Assembly: GCA_016793115.1 (NCBI GenBank)
Contig: JAEUIN010000382.1
Span: 11,385 to 75,384 of the forward strand
Direction: 5' to 3'
DNA from: Planctomycetaceae bacterium
Lineage (GTDB): Bacteria; Planctomycetota; Planctomycetia; Pirellulales; PNKZ01
DNA length: 64,000 nt
The notes under the pieces are model-generated. The model had not been told where the DNA came from and did no database searches. It was given only the letters and a program-made list of their open reading frames with translations. Both the position numbers and the translations under genes were made by a program. Below, piece by piece: positions 11,278 through 55,656 of this stretch (position 1 is the first letter of the stretch; every line of letters starts with the position of its first letter).

Positions 11278-12129
11278 ATGAACAGGCAAGTTGAGCTAGT
11301 ACGGTCGCTCGTCGTATCGTTCGTGACGGCGGCGACTTTGGTCGTTCCGATTCAAGCTGCCGTGACGACCACGGCCCTGCGCGAGACGGTCGAATATGTG
11401 ACGAAGAAGTTCTCCCGCGAAGCGGCTGAGGAAGGAACCGATCTACTCACGCGTAAAGTGGAGCAACTCGCGACCAAGCACGGCGACGACGCGCTGGTGG
11501 CGATGAAGAACGTCGGTCCCCGCGCCTTGCGCGCGGTCGATGAAGCCGGCCCTCGCGGCGCCGAGGCCGTGCGGGCAATGGCACGTTTCGGCGACGACGG
11601 CTTAGAGTACGTCGCTAAACGCCCGAAAAACCTGGAGTTGGCCGCGAAATACGGCGACGACGCCGTCGAAGCGATCGTTAAACACAAGGAGGTCGCCGAG
11701 CCGCTGATCACGGAAATGGGCGCCGCGGGCGCAAAAGCGCTCCGCGCCGTAGGACCGCAAGAAGGGCGACGTTTGGCGATGATGGCGGCCGATCCGGCGA
11801 CCGCCGCGATCGTTCGCGATCCCAAGTTGCTCGATGTCGTCGCGCGCTACGGCGATCGCGGCATGAAGTTCGTTTGGGACCACAAAGGTGCATTGGCCGT
11901 CGGCTCGGTGCTCACCGCTTTCCTCGCCGATCCGCAACCGTTTATCGACGGCACCCGCGATCTCGCTCAGGTCGCCGGAGAAACGCTCGTTAATCCGATT
12001 GTTACTGAAGCTGCGAAGTCGTTCGATTGGACGCTGCTGGGTCTGGCGTTCCTCACAGCCGCCGCCCTGTTGATCGTATGGAGCTCCTTTCTGCGCCATC
12101 GTCTGCAATTGCGTCGCGGCCCTCGCTAA
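11278..12129 (+). CDS. hypothetical repeat protein with N-terminal signal/TM and C-terminal TM anchor
   Basis: 283 aa with four copies of a [KR][HFY]GD[DR][AG] motif (KHGDDAL, RFGDDGL, KYGDDAV, RYGDRGM) and a C-terminal TM (LLGLAFLTAAALLIVWSSFL). Confidence 0.55.
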   Translation: MNRQVELVRSLVVSFVTAATLVVPIQAAVTTTALRETVEYVTKKFSREAAEEGTDLLTRKVEQLATKHGDDALVAMKNVGPRALRAVDEAGPRGAEAVRAMARFGDDGLEYVAKRPKNLELAAKYGDDAVEAIVKHKEVAEPLITEMGAAGAKALRAVGPQEGRRLAMMAADPATAAIVRDPKLLDVVARYGDRGMKFVWDHKGALAVGSVLTAFLADPQPFIDGTRDLAQVAGETLVNPIVTEAAKSFDWTLLGLAFLTAAALLIVWSSFLRHRLQLRRGPR

Positions 12130-29608: not shown

Positions 29609-29765
29609 TTCACCGCGGAGAAACGAGAACCACAGATGGACGCAGATCATCACAGATGAATTCCAACAGGGAAAATCGAGCGGTTGAGAGTCTCAAACTC
29701 GCCGTCCCAGATTTTGATTTGCGTTCATCCGCGTTGCGATCCCCCTCCGCGCTCTCCGTGGTGAA
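29609..29765. repeat. imperfect long inverted repeat in the module-2 intercistronic spacer
   Basis: Left arm TTCACCGCGGAGA...GATGGACGCAGATCA. The reverse complement of the right arm is TTCACCACGGAGA...GATGAACGCAAATCA. Small central hairpin GTTGAGA/TCTCAA. Confidence 0.6.
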
Positions 29766-36122: not shown

Positions 36123-36393
36123 CGGCCACCTCGCCAAGATAGGAGTTCGCGGCAGTATAAACGCGGCGCAGGCGAGAAGAAACGCGGCCCGGGCCCGCAC
36201 AATCGCTACAAGCGGAACAATTGCAACCCGACCCCAAGGCATGATCGCTCCCTGGGGCACGGCGGCGGAATTCGCTTAACGGCGACCTAGATTCCTCTAG
36301 CGGTCGAGTCCGTGGCGAACCGGGAGCGCAAGCGACCGGAGTCGTGCGACGACCGGCTTCATCGGGAAACTCTCGTTCGCAAAGGTTCGCTCC

Positions 36394-49016: not shown

Positions 49017-50309
49017 CTACGTCGCCGCCTTCGCACGGATCGCTTCCAACACCTCGTCGTCACTCGCCAAAGGCGAGGGCGCCACGGCCCGCAGCGGAAT
49101 CGGCACCTCGTCCATCCGGTAGGCCGTGCCGCGGCGGTGCAGGCCGTAGACGGCCGTGGTGAATTGCACGTCGGCCGGCAGCAAACGATCGGCCCCCGGA
49201 TAGTCGAGCGCGATCGTCGGAATCGTCTTCAAATAGGCCCGCGCCTCGGGCGAAAGCGTTTGCGTCTCCGCGCTGCCGACCAGCAAACAGGCGTCGACTT
49301 CGCGCCGCCTAAGCAGTTCATCGGCCGAGTATTCCCCCGGGCTATAGCGCGGGTAGCCGGCCGCGAGGCTCACGCTAAACGGAAACCCGGTCTGCCACGT
49401 CAGCACGCTGTCGGCCCCGGCCACGTCGCCGTAGATCCGCATCCGCCGCGCGTAGAACCGCGTATGGTCATTCAGTTCGGTCGTGAGCCGCAGCAGCGCC
49501 TCGACGCCGGCATGCCCGTTGCGCCCAAGCGACAAGCCGCGGCCGAAGAAGAACACGCCCGAGCGACAAGCTTTGAGTTGCGCGGCCAAGTCTCCTAGTA
49601 CGTCGATCGGCACGCCGCCGACCTCGCTCGTGCCGAGTTCGACCCCTTTCACCAGCGCCCGCAGCGCCCAGAGCACTTCGAAATCGCTCGACGGCCGAAT
49701 CCGCACGAATTGGTCGGCCCGCTCGGTCGTCTTGGTTTCTTGAATGTCGAACACGATCAGCTTCCGTCCGGCGCGACCTTGCGGCACGAACTGTCCCCGC
49801 GGTTCGAGCGAGTAGCGCTCCATGTGCCGGGGATGGCTCACCGCCGGGTTCGCACCCCAGTAGATCACCAAGTCGGCCCGGTTCCGCACTTCGCCGAGCG
49901 AGCAAGTCGACTCCCCGACCGTCTGCAAGGCGATGATCGAATTGCCGTGACAGGTCGAGGCCGTCGTATCGATGACCGCGCCGATCGTATCGGCCAAATG
50001 CACCGCGGCCCGATGACCCGGCACGCTGCTCCGCGACAACCCGTAGACGAGCGGCAACTTCGCCGCGCGCAAGATCCGCGCCGCCTCTGCCGCGGCCACG
50101 TCCAGCGTCGCCGCTTGGCCGCGCACGAGAATCGGCTCCGCCGGCGGCGGCACGTTGTGCTTCGCGAACCAGGCCGCCTGCAACGCGCAGTTCGACTCCA
50201 TCGCCGTAATCCGACCCCCCTCGACCACCGCGCGCAAGTCGTCGCAAACGCACCCGCAAACGGTACATGCGACGTCTTCGACGATCCTTCGAGCGCTATT
50301 CACGACCAT
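49017..50309 (-). CDS. formylmethanofuran dehydrogenase subunit B-like (FwdB/FhcB family) protein
   Basis: N-terminal VACTVCGCVCDDL cysteine motif and a molybdopterin-oxidoreductase-like body (IYWGANPAVSHPRH). ATG at 50309. Stop is 6 bp from the stop of the convergent 47490-49010 gene. Confidence 0.55.
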   Translation of the reverse strand: MVVNSARRIVEDVACTVCGCVCDDLRAVVEGGRITAMESNCALQAAWFAKHNVPPPAEPILVRGQAATLDVAAAEAARILRAAKLPLVYGLSRSSVPGHRAAVHLADTIGAVIDTTASTCHGNSIIALQTVGESTCSLGEVRNRADLVIYWGANPAVSHPRHMERYSLEPRGQFVPQGRAGRKLIVFDIQETKTTERADQFVRIRPSSDFEVLWALRALVKGVELGTSEVGGVPIDVLGDLAAQLKACRSGVFFFGRGLSLGRNGHAGVEALLRLTTELNDHTRFYARRMRIYGDVAGADSVLTWQTGFPFSVSLAAGYPRYSPGEYSADELLRRREVDACLLVGSAETQTLSPEARAYLKTIPTIALDYPGADRLLPADVQFTTAVYGLHRRGTAYRMDEVPIPLRAVAPSPLASDDEVLEAIRAKAAT

Positions 50310-50313
50310 TCGT

Positions 50314-50507
50314 CCGGAGAAGGGAGATAAGGAGATGGGGAGGAGATGTCGGGGATAAGAAAGTAAGTGTGAGCGAGAGGAGCAGACTTCAGACGGAGAT
50401 ATCGCTGGGACTAACAAACCGGAGGACGTACATGGAAAACATAACTCCAGACACCCATCCTCCTATCCCCTCCGATCCCCTCCGATCCCCTGATCCCCTT
50501 TCTCCGG
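50314..50507. repeat. G-tract/C-tract inverted-arm intercistronic element, copy 1
   Basis: Left arm CCGGAGAAGGGAGATAAGGAGATGGGGAGGAGATGTCGGGGAT. The reverse complement of the right arm is CCGGAGAAAGGGGATCAGGGGATCGGAGGGGATCGGAGGGGATAGGAGGATGGG. About 95-bp AT-richer core. Confidence 0.75.
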
Positions 50508-50530
50508 CCGAGCAACGCCTCGGAAGCGGC

Positions 50531-52018
50531 TTACACTAACAATTTTTTTAGCACTTGCTGCTTTTCCACGCCGCTCAGTCGGGCGTCGAGTCCTTGGAAC
50601 TTATAGGTGAAGCGTTCGTGGTCGATGCCCAGGCAGTGCAGAATCGTCGCGTTCAGGTCGTTCACGTGCGTCGGCTTGTCGACAATGTTGTAGCTGAAGT
50701 CGTCGGTCTCGCCGTACACTTGGCCTCCCTTGATCCCGCCGCCCGCGAGCCACATGCAGAAGTTGCGGGGGTGGTGATCGCGGCCGTAGTTCGTCTTGGT
50801 CAGCGTCCCTTGCGAGTACACGGTGCGGCCGAACTCTCCGCCCCACACCACAAGGGTTTCCTCAAGCAGGCCCTTCTGCTTCAAGTCGGTGAGCAGCGCG
50901 CCGATCGGCTGGTCGGTGTCTTCGCATTGCAAGCGCAGGTCGCCCGGCAAGTTGCCGTGCTGATCCCAGCCGCGATGCAGAATCTGCACCACGCGCACGC
51001 CCCGCTCCACCAAGCGCCGGGCCAACAGCGCGCTCGACGCGAACGTACCCGGCTTCGTCACGTCGGGCCCGTACATCGCGAGCGTCGCCGCCGTTTCCGT
51101 CGAAAGGTCGGTCAGCTCCGGCACGCTCGTCTGCATGCGAAACGCCATCTCATACTGCTTGATCCGCGTGTCGATCTCGGGGTCGCCGAACTTGGCTTTG
51201 CTTCGTTCGTTGAGCGCGCCGAGCGCGTCGAGCATCGTCCGGCGATGCCGCGCGTCGACCCCCGGCGGGTTCTGAATGTAAAGCACCGGATCGCCGACGC
51301 TCCGCAGCGCCACGCCCGTGTGCGCCGTCGGCAGAAAGCCGCTGCTCCACATTCGCGTAAACAAGGCCTGCGCCGCGGCCTTCGATTTCCAATTCGGCGT
51401 CAGCACGACGAACGCCGGCAAGTCGTTCGTCTCCGCTCCCAGTCCGTAGCTCAGCCACGAACCGAGACTGGCGAAGCCGGGCACTTCGCGCCCCGTCATC
51501 ACGAACGTGCAGGCCGGATCGTGATTGATCGCGTTGGTATGCACCGTCTTCACGACGGCCAAGTCGTCGATGTGCTTGGCCGTGTGGGGCAAAAGCTCGC
51601 TCACCCACGTGCCGCATTTGCCGTGCTGCGCGAACTTGAACATCGACGGCGCGACCGGCAGCCGCGCCTGCCCGCTCGTCATGGTCGTGATTCGCTGACC
51701 CATCCGAATCGAGTCGGGCAGGTCTTTGTCGAAGTGGTCTTGAAGTTTCGGCTTGTAGTCGAAGGTGTCCAACTGCGACGGGCCGCCGTTCATGTGCAGA
51801 TAGATGATCGACTTCGCCTTCGCGGCGAAATGCGGCAACCCCTCCAATCCCGGCTGCACGCGCTCCGCAGGCAATTTGGCCGGCACGGCGGAAGCCGGCG
51901 CAGCCCCGCGGGCCGATGCGCCGAGCATCGCCAAAGCCGCCCCGCCGAACCGCAGCCCGACATCGCCGAAAAACTGCCGACGCGTTTGCTGATTCAAGAA
52001 TTCAATCATTGGGTCCAT
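50531..52018 (-). CDS. Tat-exported DUF1501 protein, module 3
   Basis: Leader [22 protein letters not shown] and blocks [33 protein letters not shown]. Confidence 0.85.
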
Positions 52019-52057
52019 AAGTCACCTACGTCGCTTGCCGCCGCGCCGTTTCGCATT

Positions 52058-52253
52058 CAGAGAAGGGAGATAAGGGGATCGGAGGGGATGTGGGGGATGA
52101 GTTTTTGGTTTTGGGTTTCTAGTATTCAGTCTCGTTATATTCTTTTCGCTGCGCTATCGACTCGTTCGCAGATTCGAGATTGGAAATCCGAAATTCAGAA
52201 TCCCAATCTTCATCCCCAATATCCCCTCCGATCCCCTTATCCCCCTTCTCTGG
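52058..52253. repeat. G-tract/C-tract inverted-arm intercistronic element, copy 2
   Basis: Left arm CAGAGAAGGGAGATAAGGGGATCGGAGGGGATGTGGGGGATG. The reverse complement of the right arm is CCAGAGAAGGGGGATAAGGGGATCGGAGGGGATATTGGGGATG, with 3 mismatches in 42. About 110-bp AT-rich core. Confidence 0.85.
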
Positions 52254-52265
52254 ATGCGAGCGGGT

Positions 52266-55200
52266 TCAATTTCGATTGACCGTTTCGTCTAAGTTGAGGA
52301 TCAGGTTCGCCGTCAGCGTCCAAGCGGCGGTTTCCGCGCTTGGAGACTTTGCTTTAGGTGTCGATTCACCTACGTGGATCGCCGCCTTGGCCGATTTGGG
52401 ATCGGCTTGATACATGGCGAGTTGTTTCTCGTGCGCGGCGGCGACGATTTTCAATTCGTCGGCGTCCGGTTGCCTTGCCAGCACCGTGCGGTAGAGCCAA
52501 GTGATGCGCTCTTCGCGCGAGCCGCCGGCTTCGGCGAGGGCTCGTTCGGCTAGGGCTCGCGCGGCTTCAAAGTGTTGCACGTCGTTCATGAGCTGCAGGG
52601 CCTGCAGCGGCGTGTTGCTTCGTTCGCGGCGGGCGCAAGCTTGCTCGCGGTTCGGGCCGTCGAAGTTCGACATAAACGGCGGCGGCGCGGTCCGCTTCAA
52701 AAACGCGTAGATGCTCCGCCGATACAAGGCCGGCCCGTGGTCTTGCAGATAGTAGCGCGTGTTGCTGTCGGCATAGCCGACCGGCTCCCAGATATTCGGC
52801 GGCTGATAACTGCGGAAGCCGGCCCCGCCCATGTCCCAGTTGATCAGGCCGCTCACGGCCAGCACGTTGTCGCGAATTTGTTCGGCATCAAGCCGCATCC
52901 GCGGCCCGCGAGCAAGCAAGCGATTCTCCGGATCACGCGCCAACACCTCGGGCGTTGCAAGCGACTCCTGCCGGAACGCCGCCGAAGTCACAAGCAACCG
53001 CATGTAGTCCTTCATGCGCCAGGCGCCAGGGGAATTCTTGCTCTCTTCCGGCGTCTGGCTCGTGCCGCTTGGTCCCTTCTGCAAGCGAAGCGCTAACCAA
53101 TCCAGCAGCGGCGCGTTCAGCGGCGGTTCGCCTTGCGAACCGAAGTCGCCGCTCGTCTTCACCAACCCCACGCCGAACACTTGCTGCCACAAGCGATTCG
53201 CTTGCACGCGGGCCGTCAGCGGGTGCTCGGACGAAACGAGCCACCGTGCGAGGTCGAGTCGATTCGCGCGTGCGGCGCCTTCACGCTTCTTCAGGGCAGG
53301 CAGCACGGCCGGTACGCCCGGCTCGACCTTGTCGCCCGGCTTGTCGTACTGCCCGCGGAGCATGACGAAGGCTTCGCGCGGCGTCGGCACGTCGCCGAAC
53401 ACCATCGTCCCTTCGATCGCCGCGTCGGCCGCTTCGCGCGCCGCGCGGGCCGCGAGCCAAGCCTTGCGCTTCGCCGTCAGATCGTCGGTCGCAGGGCGCG
53501 CCACATAAGTGAGGTAGAACTCTTGGAGCTTGGCGACGGCTTCCGGCTTGTGGTCCTTCGCTTTCGCCGGCCCGTCTTTAAGCACCGCCGCTAAATCCCC
53601 CGGTACGTCGGGAATCGGCTTCGCGCCGGCCTGCTTCCACCAAACCGAGAACGACGAGAGCGGGTCTTTCGCCGGCTCGACGAGGCCGCGGATCGAGAGC
53701 GCGTCCCAATACACGACGCCGCCGGTTTCCTGCAACGTCACCTGCGTGATCCGTTGGCCCGGCTTCAAGCCGAGCTCCGCACCGGTGAGCGAGAGCTTCG
53801 TCCACTCCCCCGGCTTCGGCAGCGGCCCGCGCCGTTCGGATAAGGCCAGACCCCGAATGCCGCCGTCGAGCGCGCCTTCTTCACCCCACCACGCACGATG
53901 GTTGCCGCCCCCTTCGAGCAACAGCGACACGGCTTGCGGCACGTTGTGCGGATCGGGCCGCAACCAAACTTCGACCACGGCCTCGTCGGGTACGACGACC
54001 GGCGTAAGTTGGCACTGCAGCTTGTCTTCGAAGAAGTACGCGTTGGCCTGCCGCAGCACGCGCCGCCCGCTCGGCGCACGCAGCGCGGGGTCGGCGAGCC
54101 AAGTGCTGGTATTGCGCGAGGTGTTGCGCACCGAGCTACCCAGCGGCCAAGCATCGTCGAACACGACGTCGGTCACCGCTTGCGAGGCCGCCGCCGCATC
54201 TTTCTTTTTCGTCTTGTCCGCAGCGGCCGGGTCGACATACTTCGCCGCTTTCGCCGCGGCCGCGAGCTGCTTCAGCGCGTCGGCCTCGCGGGCCTTGGCC
54301 GAGTCGAGCTTTTCTTGTTGGCCCGGTTTCGGGATCTTGAAGAACGGCGCGGTCGTGTTGATGTTGCCGTCGAGCGCCGGGTCGGCCGCGTCGTAGAAGA
54401 AGCTGTAGAACGAGTAAAACTCTTTGGTCGACACCGGATCGTATTTGTGGTCGTGGCACACGGCGCAGCCGCCCGTCAGGCCCATCCAAGTTTGCATCGT
54501 CGTCGCGGCCCGATCGACGGCGTTGCGATAGAGCCACTCTTCGGCGATCGAGCCTCCTTCGCTCGTCGTCACGTTGCAGCGATTGAACCCGGTGGCGGCG
54601 ATCTGCTCGGGCGTGGCCTGCGGCAGCAAGTCGCCCGCCAATTGCCAAACGGTGAACTCGTCGAACGGCAGATCGTCGTTGAACGCCTTGACGACCCAAT
54701 CGCGATAGGCGTACATCAGGCGCTCGTTGTCGAGGTGCAGGCCGTGCGTGTCGGCGTAGCGGGCCACGTCGAGCCAGTGGCGCGCCATCTCCTCGCCGTA
54801 GTGCGGCGACCGGAGATAGCGATCGACCATCCGCTCGTAGGCGTCGGGGGATTGATCGGCGAGAAATTCATCGACTTCGGCGAGCGTCGGCGGCAGGCCG
54901 GTGAGCGTGAAGGCGACGCGGCGGATGAGCGTCGGCCGATCGGCTTCGCCGCGCGGCGCGAGCTGCTCTTGTTCGAGCTTGGCGAGCACGAACCGATCGA
55001 CCTCGTTCTTCGGCCAGGCTTTGTTCTTCACTTGCGGCGGTCCGACGACGGCCGGCGGCTCGAAGGCCCAATGCTTCTGATAGGCGGCCCCTTCGGCGAT
55101 CCAGCGGCGGATCGCTTCCTTTTGCTCCGGCTTGAGCGTCTTGTGCGACGACGACGGAGGCATTTGCAAGTCGACGTCGTCGGTCGTGATTCGCCTCCAG

Positions 55201-55472
55201 ACTTCGCTCGCGGCCGGGTCGCCCGGCTTGATCGCAAAGCCGGCCTCGCGCTTCGCCGTCGCGCTCTCGGGCACGTCGAGCCGTAGATCGGCCTCGCGAT
55301 GCTTGGCGTCGAAGCCGTGGCATGCGAAGCAATTCTCCGAGAGGATCGGTCGGATGTCGGCGTTGAACGAAAGCTTGTCTGCCGGTTCGGCCGCGGCGAC
55401 GACGCTCGAAGCCGGCGGCGACGACGACCCGAGGCATAAACAAACGACGACCGATAAGCGCAGCAGAGTCAT
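52266..55472 (-). CDS. PSCyt(CxxCH)/DUF1549/beta-sandwich insert/DUF1553 protein, module 3
   Basis: Signal peptide MTLLRLSVVVCLCLG, CFACH, SPHYGEEMARHWLDVARYAD, GCAVCHDHKYDP and the C-terminal LILNLDETVNRN. ATG at 55472. Confidence 0.85.
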   Translation of the reverse strand: MTLLRLSVVVCLCLGSSSPPASSVVAAAEPADKLSFNADIRPILSENCFACHGFDAKHREADLRLDVPESATAKREAGFAIKPGDPAASEVWRRITTDDVDLQMPPSSSHKTLKPEQKEAIRRWIAEGAAYQKHWAFEPPAVVGPPQVKNKAWPKNEVDRFVLAKLEQEQLAPRGEADRPTLIRRVAFTLTGLPPTLAEVDEFLADQSPDAYERMVDRYLRSPHYGEEMARHWLDVARYADTHGLHLDNERLMYAYRDWVVKAFNDDLPFDEFTVWQLAGDLLPQATPEQIAATGFNRCNVTTSEGGSIAEEWLYRNAVDRAATTMQTWMGLTGGCAVCHDHKYDPVSTKEFYSFYSFFYDAADPALDGNINTTAPFFKIPKPGQQEKLDSAKAREADALKQLAAAAKAAKYVDPAAADKTKKKDAAAASQAVTDVVFDDAWPLGSSVRNTSRNTSTWLADPALRAPSGRRVLRQANAYFFEDKLQCQLTPVVVPDEAVVEVWLRPDPHNVPQAVSLLLEGGGNHRAWWGEEGALDGGIRGLALSERRGPLPKPGEWTKLSLTGAELGLKPGQRITQVTLQETGGVVYWDALSIRGLVEPAKDPLSSFSVWWKQAGAKPIPDVPGDLAAVLKDGPAKAKDHKPEAVAKLQEFYLTYVARPATDDLTAKRKAWLAARAAREAADAAIEGTMVFGDVPTPREAFVMLRGQYDKPGDKVEPGVPAVLPALKKREGAARANRLDLARWLVSSEHPLTARVQANRLWQQVFGVGLVKTSGDFGSQGEPPLNAPLLDWLALRLQKGPSGTSQTPEESKNSPGAWRMKDYMRLLVTSAAFRQESLATPEVLARDPENRLLARGPRMRLDAEQIRDNVLAVSGLINWDMGGAGFRSYQPPNIWEPVGYADSNTRYYLQDHGPALYRRSIYAFLKRTAPPPFMSNFDGPNREQACARRERSNTPLQALQLMNDVQHFEAARALAERALAEAGGSREERITWLYRTVLARQPDADELKIVAAAHEKQLAMYQADPKSAKAAIHVGESTPKAKSPSAETAAWTLTANLILNLDETVNRN

Positions 55473-55574
55473 TGCGCAGGCACTCACGACGGGAGAGAAG
55501 GCGGGGCAATCGAGGCGGGGCGCAATCTCCATGATTTTCGATTGCCGGAAGCTTGTCCATAGCGGAGACCGGTT

Positions 55575-55656
55575 GTAGGGTGGGTCGAGTGCAGCGAGGC
55601 CCACGCGGAATGCGGCTATCAGCGGTATGGGGCCCGCAGCGCTCGACCCATCCTAC
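55575..55656. repeat. REP-like inverted repeat in a divergent promoter region
   Basis: GTAGGGTGGGTCGAGTGCAGCGAGGCCC ... GGGGCCCGCAGCGCTCGACCCATCCTAC: arms of about 28 bp with few mismatches and a spacer of about 26 nt. Confidence 0.7.

Follow-up and report, generated by a model that had tools for sequence, protein, structure and literature searches.

What keeps the arms of an intergenic hairpin constant while the sequence between them changes freely? The question is raised by two elements in a 64,000-nucleotide (nt) stretch of DNA, the window, from the draft genome of a Planctomycetaceae bacterium (assembly GCA_016793115.1; 7.3 Mb, 62% G+C; here G000), which covers positions 11385–75384 of contig JAEUIN010000382.1 (here C82). 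Gene content (PSCyt/DUF1549/DUF1553, DUF1501) and neighbours in databases mark the source as a planctomycete, probably of the Pirellulales. Both elements separate cistrons of one minus-strand operon, and both carry inverted arms built of GGRGAT units around a core. We conclude that they probably belong, as members without a gene, to a dispersed family of hairpin repeats in whose complete form the arms surround a gene for a GxxExxY protein, a predicted PD-(D/E)xK nuclease.

Two hairpin elements with shared arms and unrelated cores

An initial annotation of the window had described two arm-sharing elements at these places. Both are present and, with their tips included, span the following positions, the ends of copy 1 being set by an anchor match to CATCCAGAGAAGGGGGAT:

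50311–50510, unstranded: copy 1, a hairpin element with GGRGAT arms and no gene, lying between the stop of DUF1501 and the start of FwdB (C82:61695–61894)
50311–50356, plus strand: copy 1 G-rich arm, with tip CGTCCGGAGAAG plus four GGRGAT units
50357–50456, unstranded: copy 1 core, with a hypervariable patch between strains at 50364–50449
50457–50510, minus strand: copy 1 C-rich arm, with an extra 10-nt unit, a tandem duplication at 50465–50484
52054–52256, unstranded: copy 2, a hairpin element with GGRGAT arms and no gene, lying between the stop of DUF1553 and the start of DUF1501 (C82:63438–63640)
52054–52099, plus strand: copy 2 G-rich arm
52100–52210, unstranded: copy 2 core, GC 0.40, with T/G-rich subterminal motifs at its ends that also occur in some other copies
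52211–52256, minus strand: copy 2 C-rich arm

In both arms of both copies, about 46 nt of inverted sequence consist of a tip near CATCCRGAGAAG followed by four GGRGAT units at 8–11-nt spacing. A profile of the arms (nhmmer) matches copy 1 with E values of 2e-9 and 6e-5 and copy 2 with 9e-11 and 4e-12, and a 30-nt arm motif occurs three times in the window and in none of 100 shuffles. The arms of copy 2 (52051–52111 and 52199–52259) are 85% complementary across 61 nt, and left and right agree at 91% of the 46 conserved arm columns. In copy 1 the left/right agreement is 70%, and it has one 10-nt unit, ATCCCCTCCG, duplicated in tandem at 50465–50484, as fits its earlier description as a more degenerate relative with an extra unit.

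On the transcribed strand, both copies are predicted to form long hairpins, at −111.8 kcal/mol for copy 2 (z = −12.8) and −93.3 kcal/mol for copy 1 (z = −3.75). Rfam gave no match above threshold, and below it only those to plant microRNA precursor models that any long hairpin attracts. The cores of the two copies show no significant similarity to each other in either orientation (blastn-short), and their GC contents of 0.49 and 0.40, against 0.62 for the genome, make them unrelated and AT-richer, as had been noted.

Two known kinds of hairpin were rejected. Intrinsic terminators are excluded by the lack of a U-run after the mRNA 3′ arms, which end ...CCCUUCUCUGAAUGCGAAACGG (copy 2) and ...CCCUUCUCCGGACGAAUGG (copy 1). 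Integron attC sites carry RYYYAAC and GTTRRRY and form arrays beside an integrase, whereas the ends here read CATCCRGAGAAG and the copies are scattered over more than 20 contigs.

A dispersed family in the genome

A search of the 7.3-Mb genome with the arm profile gives about 26 elements with paired arms and a further 5 or so solo arms, spread over more than 20 contigs. The possibility that the arms are unique to the two window loci, raised in the initial annotation, is thus refuted: they recur at about 30 loci of this genome and in four of the five congeners compared below. The G-rich arm comes first in every element, as expected of terminal inverted repeats, and core lengths form a continuum between 12 and 482 nt. 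GGAGAT accounts for about a third of the units.

What the copies have in common is confined to the arms. All-against-all blastn of 26 cores gave only chance-level or subterminal matches, and a core was matched elsewhere in the genome only where it is itself another repeat, namely a second hairpin family in C45 and a 35-nt repeat with at least 30 copies in C167. No direct repeat indicative of target-site duplication is visible at the boundaries of 24 copies. With cores that never match and no such duplication found, the earlier argument against copy-paste miniature inverted-repeat transposable elements (MITEs) stands. The conservation of arms and not of cores, also claimed earlier, can now be resolved by column: the match to consensus is 89% in the units and 86% at the tip, as against 64% in the inter-unit spacers. 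Because the spacers are less conserved than the units and the tip, the constraint lies on arm sequence and not on pairing alone.

Of the spacers occupied by the 24 mapped copies, 16 are co-directional, 6 convergent and 2 divergent. All but two of these copies (22 of 24) face a stop codon, at a median distance of 12.5 nt; for start codons the median distance is 42.5 nt. No arm pair in the genome encloses a transposase-sized gene, the largest cores being 482 and 433 nt. The 482-nt core belongs to a GGRGAT-armed element at C8:2968–3547 and contains, on the minus strand, an open reading frame (ORF) for a hydrophobic, membrane-like protein of 93 amino acids, which has no Pfam or NCBIfam match.

A predicted nuclease gene within the arms

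At C70:39402–39935, GGRGAT arms surround an intact gene for a 127-amino-acid protein. This cassette of roughly 530 nt fills an operon gap, beginning 6 nt after the stop codon of a cobL-like gene and ending 6 nt before the ATG of an lmbE-like gene. The protein matches TIGR04256 'GxxExxY' (E = 3e-39) and, as its sole Pfam match, PF13366 PDDEXK_3 (E = 1e-38). In the family alignment, G29, E32 and Y35 of the GxxExxY motif are invariant together with D71 and E81, and K83 is nearly so. An AlphaFold model of the C70 protein (predicted local distance difference test score 94) is nearest, by fold search, to the Cas4 nuclease SSO0001, lambda exonuclease and related PD-(D/E)xK enzymes; a sequence search of the PDB gave no hit.

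The genome has a second GxxExxY gene, at C255:4526–4873, with arms GATTCACAACGGAGAACTCGGAGAGCCCGGAG and units of the CGGAGA type. On one side of its cassette is the stop codon of a gene that by eye looks to be of the DUF1553 type, and on the other the start of a DUF1501-type gene. Together with the junctions in the window, the genome has three junctions of this operon type that are occupied by a hairpin.

GxxExxY genes are present in 45 of 61 genomes of the order, with 1–14 each, fragments and stop-bearing copies included. Across a sample of the order and phylum, inverted arms of at least 16 nt flank 37 of 58 GxxExxY genes, compared with 2 of 111 control windows shifted by 1 kb (Fisher p = 6e-20). 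The arms found elsewhere in the phylum consist of tandem 7–10-nt units, for example CACAGAG, CGCAGAG, CACGGAG, CGCCAAG, ACGAATC, CCAGGAA and GGGGAAA. Arm sequence goes with protein sequence: the sharing of arm 5-mers is 0.03 where the proteins are less than 35% identical and 0.35 where they are more than 70% identical, and over 38 loci the two measures correlate (Mantel rho 0.38, p = 0.0005). GGAGAT arms are also found around the gene for the nearest homologue of the C70 protein, which is 63% identical and comes from another family of the phylum. Since unconstrained DNA would be randomised at this level of protein identity, the retention of GGAGAT implies selection on the unit that is tied to the protein lineage. 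A literature search on 'GxxExxY', the family accessions and the arm strings found no description of a repeat–nuclease pairing in titles or abstracts.

A genus series at the cobL–lmbE site

We compared G000 with five congeners (G001–G005) and examined the cobL–lmbE locus in six species of the genus (stretches L109–L114). The order cobL, GxxExxY, lmbE is syntenic in four of the five congeners, G001, G002, G004 and G005. At this site the arms of G002, G004 and G005 are made of GGRGAT units. In G001 the left arm reads GGRGAC and the right arm GTCYCC, a concerted change of all units. G003 has no gene at the site; its spacer is 75 nt long and retains a relic arm made of GGGGTC units. Neither a GxxExxY gene nor a GGRGAT array was found anywhere in the G003 genome, which has 21 matches to the GGGGTC-array pattern at about 15 loci.

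An apparent absence of the family from the relatives proved to be an artefact of a strict pattern, GAGAAGGGGGATAAGGGGAT with at most 2 mismatches. A three-unit GGRGAT pattern finds it in four of the five congeners, with 83 matches in G005, 34 in G004, 31 in G002 and 29 in G001, and 86 in G000.

Among the congeners, the cassette protein is 51–69% identical, compared with 78–97% for the flanking proteins, and the pairs compare as follows:

G001 and G002, sister species: flanks 97%, nuclease 51%; cassette DNA (530–590 nt) not alignable
G004 and G005, sister species: flanks 96%, nuclease 55%; cassette DNA (530–590 nt) not alignable
G001 and G005, cross pair: flanks 87–92%, nuclease 65%; cassette DNA alignable
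G002 and G004, cross pair: flanks 84–91%, nuclease 69%; cassette DNA alignable

By these identities the cassette evolves much faster than the sequence around it and does not follow the species tree. Because the cross pairs align and the sisters do not, two cassette alleles are common to two species pairs, whether by replacement at a site that stays fixed or because an old polymorphism has persisted. With GAT, GAC and GTC flavours and nucleases that are 51–69% identical between flanks that are 96–97% identical, the cobL–lmbE series amounts to a natural experiment in specificity switching.

The window junctions in relatives and strains

The elements of the window lie in an operon whose order on the minus strand is a DUF1553-type cytochrome gene, the DUF1501 gene and the FwdB gene, as the initial annotation had it:

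52266–55604, minus strand: PSCyt1/DUF1549/DUF1553 gene, the upstream cistron (Pfam PF07587, PF07583, PF07635), its stop 9 nt from copy 2
50531–52018, minus strand: DUF1501 gene, bracketed by both elements (PF07394, E = 1e-149)
49017–50309, minus strand: FwdB-like gene, the downstream cistron (TIGR03129, 420 bits against a cut-off of 327.8)

Copy 2 is 35 nt from the start of the DUF1501 gene and copy 1 is 20 nt from its stop, and the ATG of FwdB is 1 nt from the tip of copy 1. The FwdB N-terminus beside copy 1 (window 50280–50310) begins MVVNSARRIVEDVAC, as against MTEEVHDIAC, MAHVVEDIAC and MAEEIRDIAC in three congeners; it is longer than theirs and different, as if the junction had been remodelled.

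DUF1501 orthologues that are 88–91% identical occur in the same operon order in G001, G002 and G005. There, the DUF1501–FwdB junction is a spacer of 14–18 nt (all three species), and the DUF1553–DUF1501 junction is one of 19–21 nt in G001 and G002. These short spacers in sister species mean that the window elements are not part of a conserved operon design, and the initial view of them as a feature of this operon gives way to one in which the arms belong to a dispersed family. At the DUF1553–DUF1501 junction G005 has a hairpin of its own (117 nt; L020 4676–4791) with arms GGGAGATCGGAGACTAGAGAC and GTCTGTAGTCTCCGATC of the GGAGAT/GGAGAC type; this spacer is either a hot spot or the site of an old element that has diverged in place. 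Capture of an ancestral spacer as the source of the cores of the window copies was rejected: the spacers of the relatives measure 14–23 nt, and the remainder of the spacer lies outside the arms.

Strains were compared through metagenome runs X1–X20, from at least nine studies with activated sludge among the sources; metatranscriptome contigs gave scant coverage of the operon locus. In strains that are 96–99% identical overall, copy 2 diverges by 2–4%, like its flanks. Copy 1 has two alleles, of which allele B occurs in runs X7, X8 and X19 (three studies). Allele B lacks the extra 10-nt unit; in all else its arms are unchanged. Its core differs by 15 substitutions and 3 small indels within 86 nt (50364–50449), as against about 1.4% in the rest of a 2.9-kb stretch (binomial P = 2e-12). 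No source of this patch was found elsewhere in the genome, and gene conversion from a paralogous core was rejected for that reason; adenine-specific mutagenesis, of the kind made by diversity-generating retroelements, was rejected because the substitutions are of all kinds. Allele B is direct evidence that cores can be scrambled locally while the arms stay fixed, which is one route to unrelated cores.

Interpretation and alternative explanations

We therefore favour the reading in which copies 1 and 2 are gene-less members of the family whose complete form carries the GxxExxY gene. The unit arrays may be the recognition site of the cognate nuclease, and it would be for this reason that arms are conserved and cores are free. 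By analogy with the REP/REPIN–RAYT and NTS–Ssn systems, a nuclease-dependent process could spread or keep the cassette and its gene-less relatives, and the cores could diverge fast by local scrambling of the hairpin loop, as between the alleles of copy 1. The hairpin in the mRNA appears to be a side effect, though one that probably has effects there. The operon mRNA would carry stems of 45–60 bp, and cutting by RNase III, an enzyme that G000 encodes, would be probable, by analogy with Correia elements and rRNA intervening sequences, and would uncouple the three cistrons. The start region of FwdB, which adjoins the foot of a stem of roughly 50 bp, would be poorly accessible as long as that stem was neither cut nor melted.

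Several observations weigh against this reading. Arm likeness is 77.7% within elements and 74.8% between elements (permutation p = 0.001), so within-element pairing is not strongly maintained in the family. A six-frame search of the gene-less cores with a GxxExxY profile found no remnant of a nuclease gene and the cores are not shared either, so that this reading does not account for how gene-less copies arise. The GGGGTC arrays of G003, which has no GxxExxY gene, show that arms can persist without the nuclease, and in G001 the gene-bearing copy has GGRGAC arms, yet GGRGAT arrays are matched 29 times. Both window copies are present in every metagenome strain at 96–100% identity, and no recent insertion or excision was caught. 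Finally, because G000 branches outside the four congeners and G003 has no synteny, the difference at the window junctions could be either a gain in G000 or a loss elsewhere.

A more specific mechanism can be put forward only tentatively, and we regard it as doubtful. The GxxExxY nuclease would, with its arms, make up a cassette that maintains itself, turning over as alleles at a fixed 'home' site. The nuclease would read the unit array of its own arms and cut within or close to the hairpin or cruciform, and repair would then copy or renew the arms and scramble the loop. Such a mechanism would yield conserved arms with free cores, the patch in copy 1, the concerted GAT/GAC/GTC changes and the trans-species alleles at cobL–lmbE. 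If true, a very large family of orphan nucleases would thereby gain a function.

The initial annotation had argued for selection on the arms. The conserved arm sequence upholds that argument; the selection is better explained by a repeat–nuclease partnership than by a host regulatory hairpin. Host-selected RNA elements, whether RNase III sites, 3′-end stabilisers or translational occluders that set the DUF1553/DUF1501/FwdB ratio, would suit the position of both copies inside a co-directional operon and directly after stop codons, their very stable stems, the RNase III gene of the genome, their retention in all sampled strains and the divergence of copy 2, which is no faster than that of its flanks. 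However, the same operon works with 14–23-nt spacers in G001, G002 and G005, the arms are common to about 25 unrelated loci, convergent gene pairs included, and the same arms enclose a nuclease gene. The arm sequence is conserved and not only the pairing, left and right pair within an element barely better than between elements, and no U-tract follows the 3′ arm. We consider this explanation unlikely. Arrays that bind a host protein at the DNA level (a nucleoid protein, or one of gyrase or IHF type, in the manner of BIMEs), with the hairpin incidental, would sit well with four units at roughly helical spacing, with units more conserved than spacers and with the weak within-element pairing. Yet the unit flavour shifts between GAT, GAC and GTC in close species, tracking the enclosed nuclease and not a conserved host protein, and the arms form an inverted pair that is always in one order, which leaves this explanation very improbable.

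Equally improbable is that the elements are ordinary MITEs, deletion derivatives of an insertion sequence that move in trans by a transposase binding the subterminal GGRGAT repeats. Their terminal inverted repeats of about 46 nt with a conserved tip, their dispersed intergenic copies and the differences in presence between species are what MITEs would show, and the hexamer arrays resemble the subterminal binding sites generally described for transposon ends. Against this, target-site duplication was not found, no two copies have a core in common, no arm pair encloses a transposase-sized gene (largest cores 482 and 433 nt), and the only recognisable enclosed gene encodes the 127-amino-acid PD-(D/E)xK protein. 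Least plausible, to the point where we give it almost no weight, is a G-quadruplex/i-motif switch or a Shine-Dalgarno/anti-Shine-Dalgarno mimic regulating translation of the downstream cistron. The arms of copy 2 do hold four tracts of four or more Gs with 4–7-nt loops, as well as GGAGG strings, but neither the tracts nor these strings are preserved in the family: the motif (four tracts of at least three Gs with loops of 1–7 nt) is broken by GGAGAT in copy 1, in many other copies and in relatives. Relatives carry GGAGAT, GGAGAC, or CACAGAG and CGCCAAG units in the same architecture, and the complementary arm would compete for pairing, with a hairpin predicted at −112 kcal/mol.

The proposed partnership of repeat and nuclease matters in several ways. 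PF13366/GxxExxY is a large family, found in many phyla and without an assigned function, for which a specific pairing that co-evolves with hairpin repeats would provide a testable role. For annotation, elements of this kind explain many long 'orphan' intergenic palindromes, as well as spurious ORFs in planctomycetes and in other bacteria from soil and wastewater. For the operon itself, consequences for mRNA processing and translation are to be expected from stems of 45–60 bp between cistrons, one of which ends 1 nt from a start codon.

Comparison with known systems

The elements belong to a known kind, that of dispersed repeats which flank a small enzyme gene and have it as their partner; new here are the three-flavour genus series, the trans-species cassette alleles at one home site and the hypervariable core patch. 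One close parallel is with repetitive extragenic palindromic (REP) and REPIN repeats and their RAYT gene, reportedly described by Bertels and Rainey in 2011. In both cases short intergenic hairpin doublets occur in each genome as tens of copies that have no gene, and one or a few others flank a small gene that presumably acts on the repeats. The flavours are species-specific, and the sites tend to lie after stops and between convergent genes. RAYT is a Y1 HUH transposase, whereas the gene enclosed here encodes a 127-amino-acid PF13366 PD-(D/E)xK protein; a REP is a single palindrome, whereas the arms here are arrays of 3–4 tandem 7–10-nt units; and, unlike those of REP/REPIN, the loops reach 480 nt and are unrelated between copies.

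Correia/NEMIS elements of Neisseria and ERIC/IRU elements of enterobacteria are co-transcribed hairpin MITEs whose stems are cut by RNase III or RNase E, altering the stability of neighbouring cistrons. They likewise have terminal inverted repeats, lie in operon spacers and 3′ regions and form long transcribed stems, but their cores are homogeneous and Correia elements duplicate a TA target; in the present family the cores are unrelated and no duplication was seen. We know of no transposase partner for the GGRGAT elements. The intervening sequences of 23S rRNA in Leptospira and Coxiella (S23p/PF05635), which RNase III excises, also wrap a small ORF in a long stem within a transcribed region. 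They interrupt rRNA helices and encode a four-helix-bundle protein, whereas the present elements occupy mRNA spacers, the protein has a nuclease fold, and most copies lack an ORF.

The Ssn nucleases are tied to NTS repeats, and their activity on single-stranded DNA has been demonstrated (Chenal et al. 2025, PMC11893778). The likeness lies in a small site-specific nuclease linked to a multi-copy genomic sequence, a property that for GxxExxY is a prediction. Ssn is of the GIY-YIG type, unlike GxxExxY, which has the PD-(D/E)xK fold and PF13366 as its sole Pfam match. A GxxExxY partnership would add a third repeat–enzyme symbiosis beside REP/RAYT and NTS/Ssn.

Other repeats in the window and beyond

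A different long hairpin, at window positions 29609–29765, fills the spacer of a second DUF1553–DUF1501 module. It has outer arms TTCACCGCGGAGA and TCTCCGTGGTGAA with inner units of the CACAGATG type, and folds at −65 kcal/mol. The window also holds, at about 36315–36343 (C82:47699–47727), one copy of a repeat of about 35 nt containing GACTCCGGTCGCTGACGCTCCCGGCTCGCTG, which recurs at about 30 other places in the genome at 88–100% identity; another copy lies in the loop of the GGRGAT element at C167:4375–4521.

GGRGAT arms also occur next to, or mixed with, other families. In the mosaic element C373:4163–4320, GGRGAT units are combined with outer CACAGAGG units, and at C45:22830–23060 and C189:58327–58500 a solo GGRGAT arm stands directly beside a full hairpin that belongs to another family.

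A scan of contigs from metagenome-assembled genomes (MAGs; L023–L048) found the pattern GAGAARGGRGAT..GGRGAT....GGRGAT in MAGs labelled Armatimonadota, Stellaceae, Acidobacteriota, Spirochaetota and Comamonadaceae. Paired hairpins occur among these matches in L024, L030 and L038, and a Planctomycetaceae MAG carries four solo copies of a GACTGGGGATACGGGGGAT variant.

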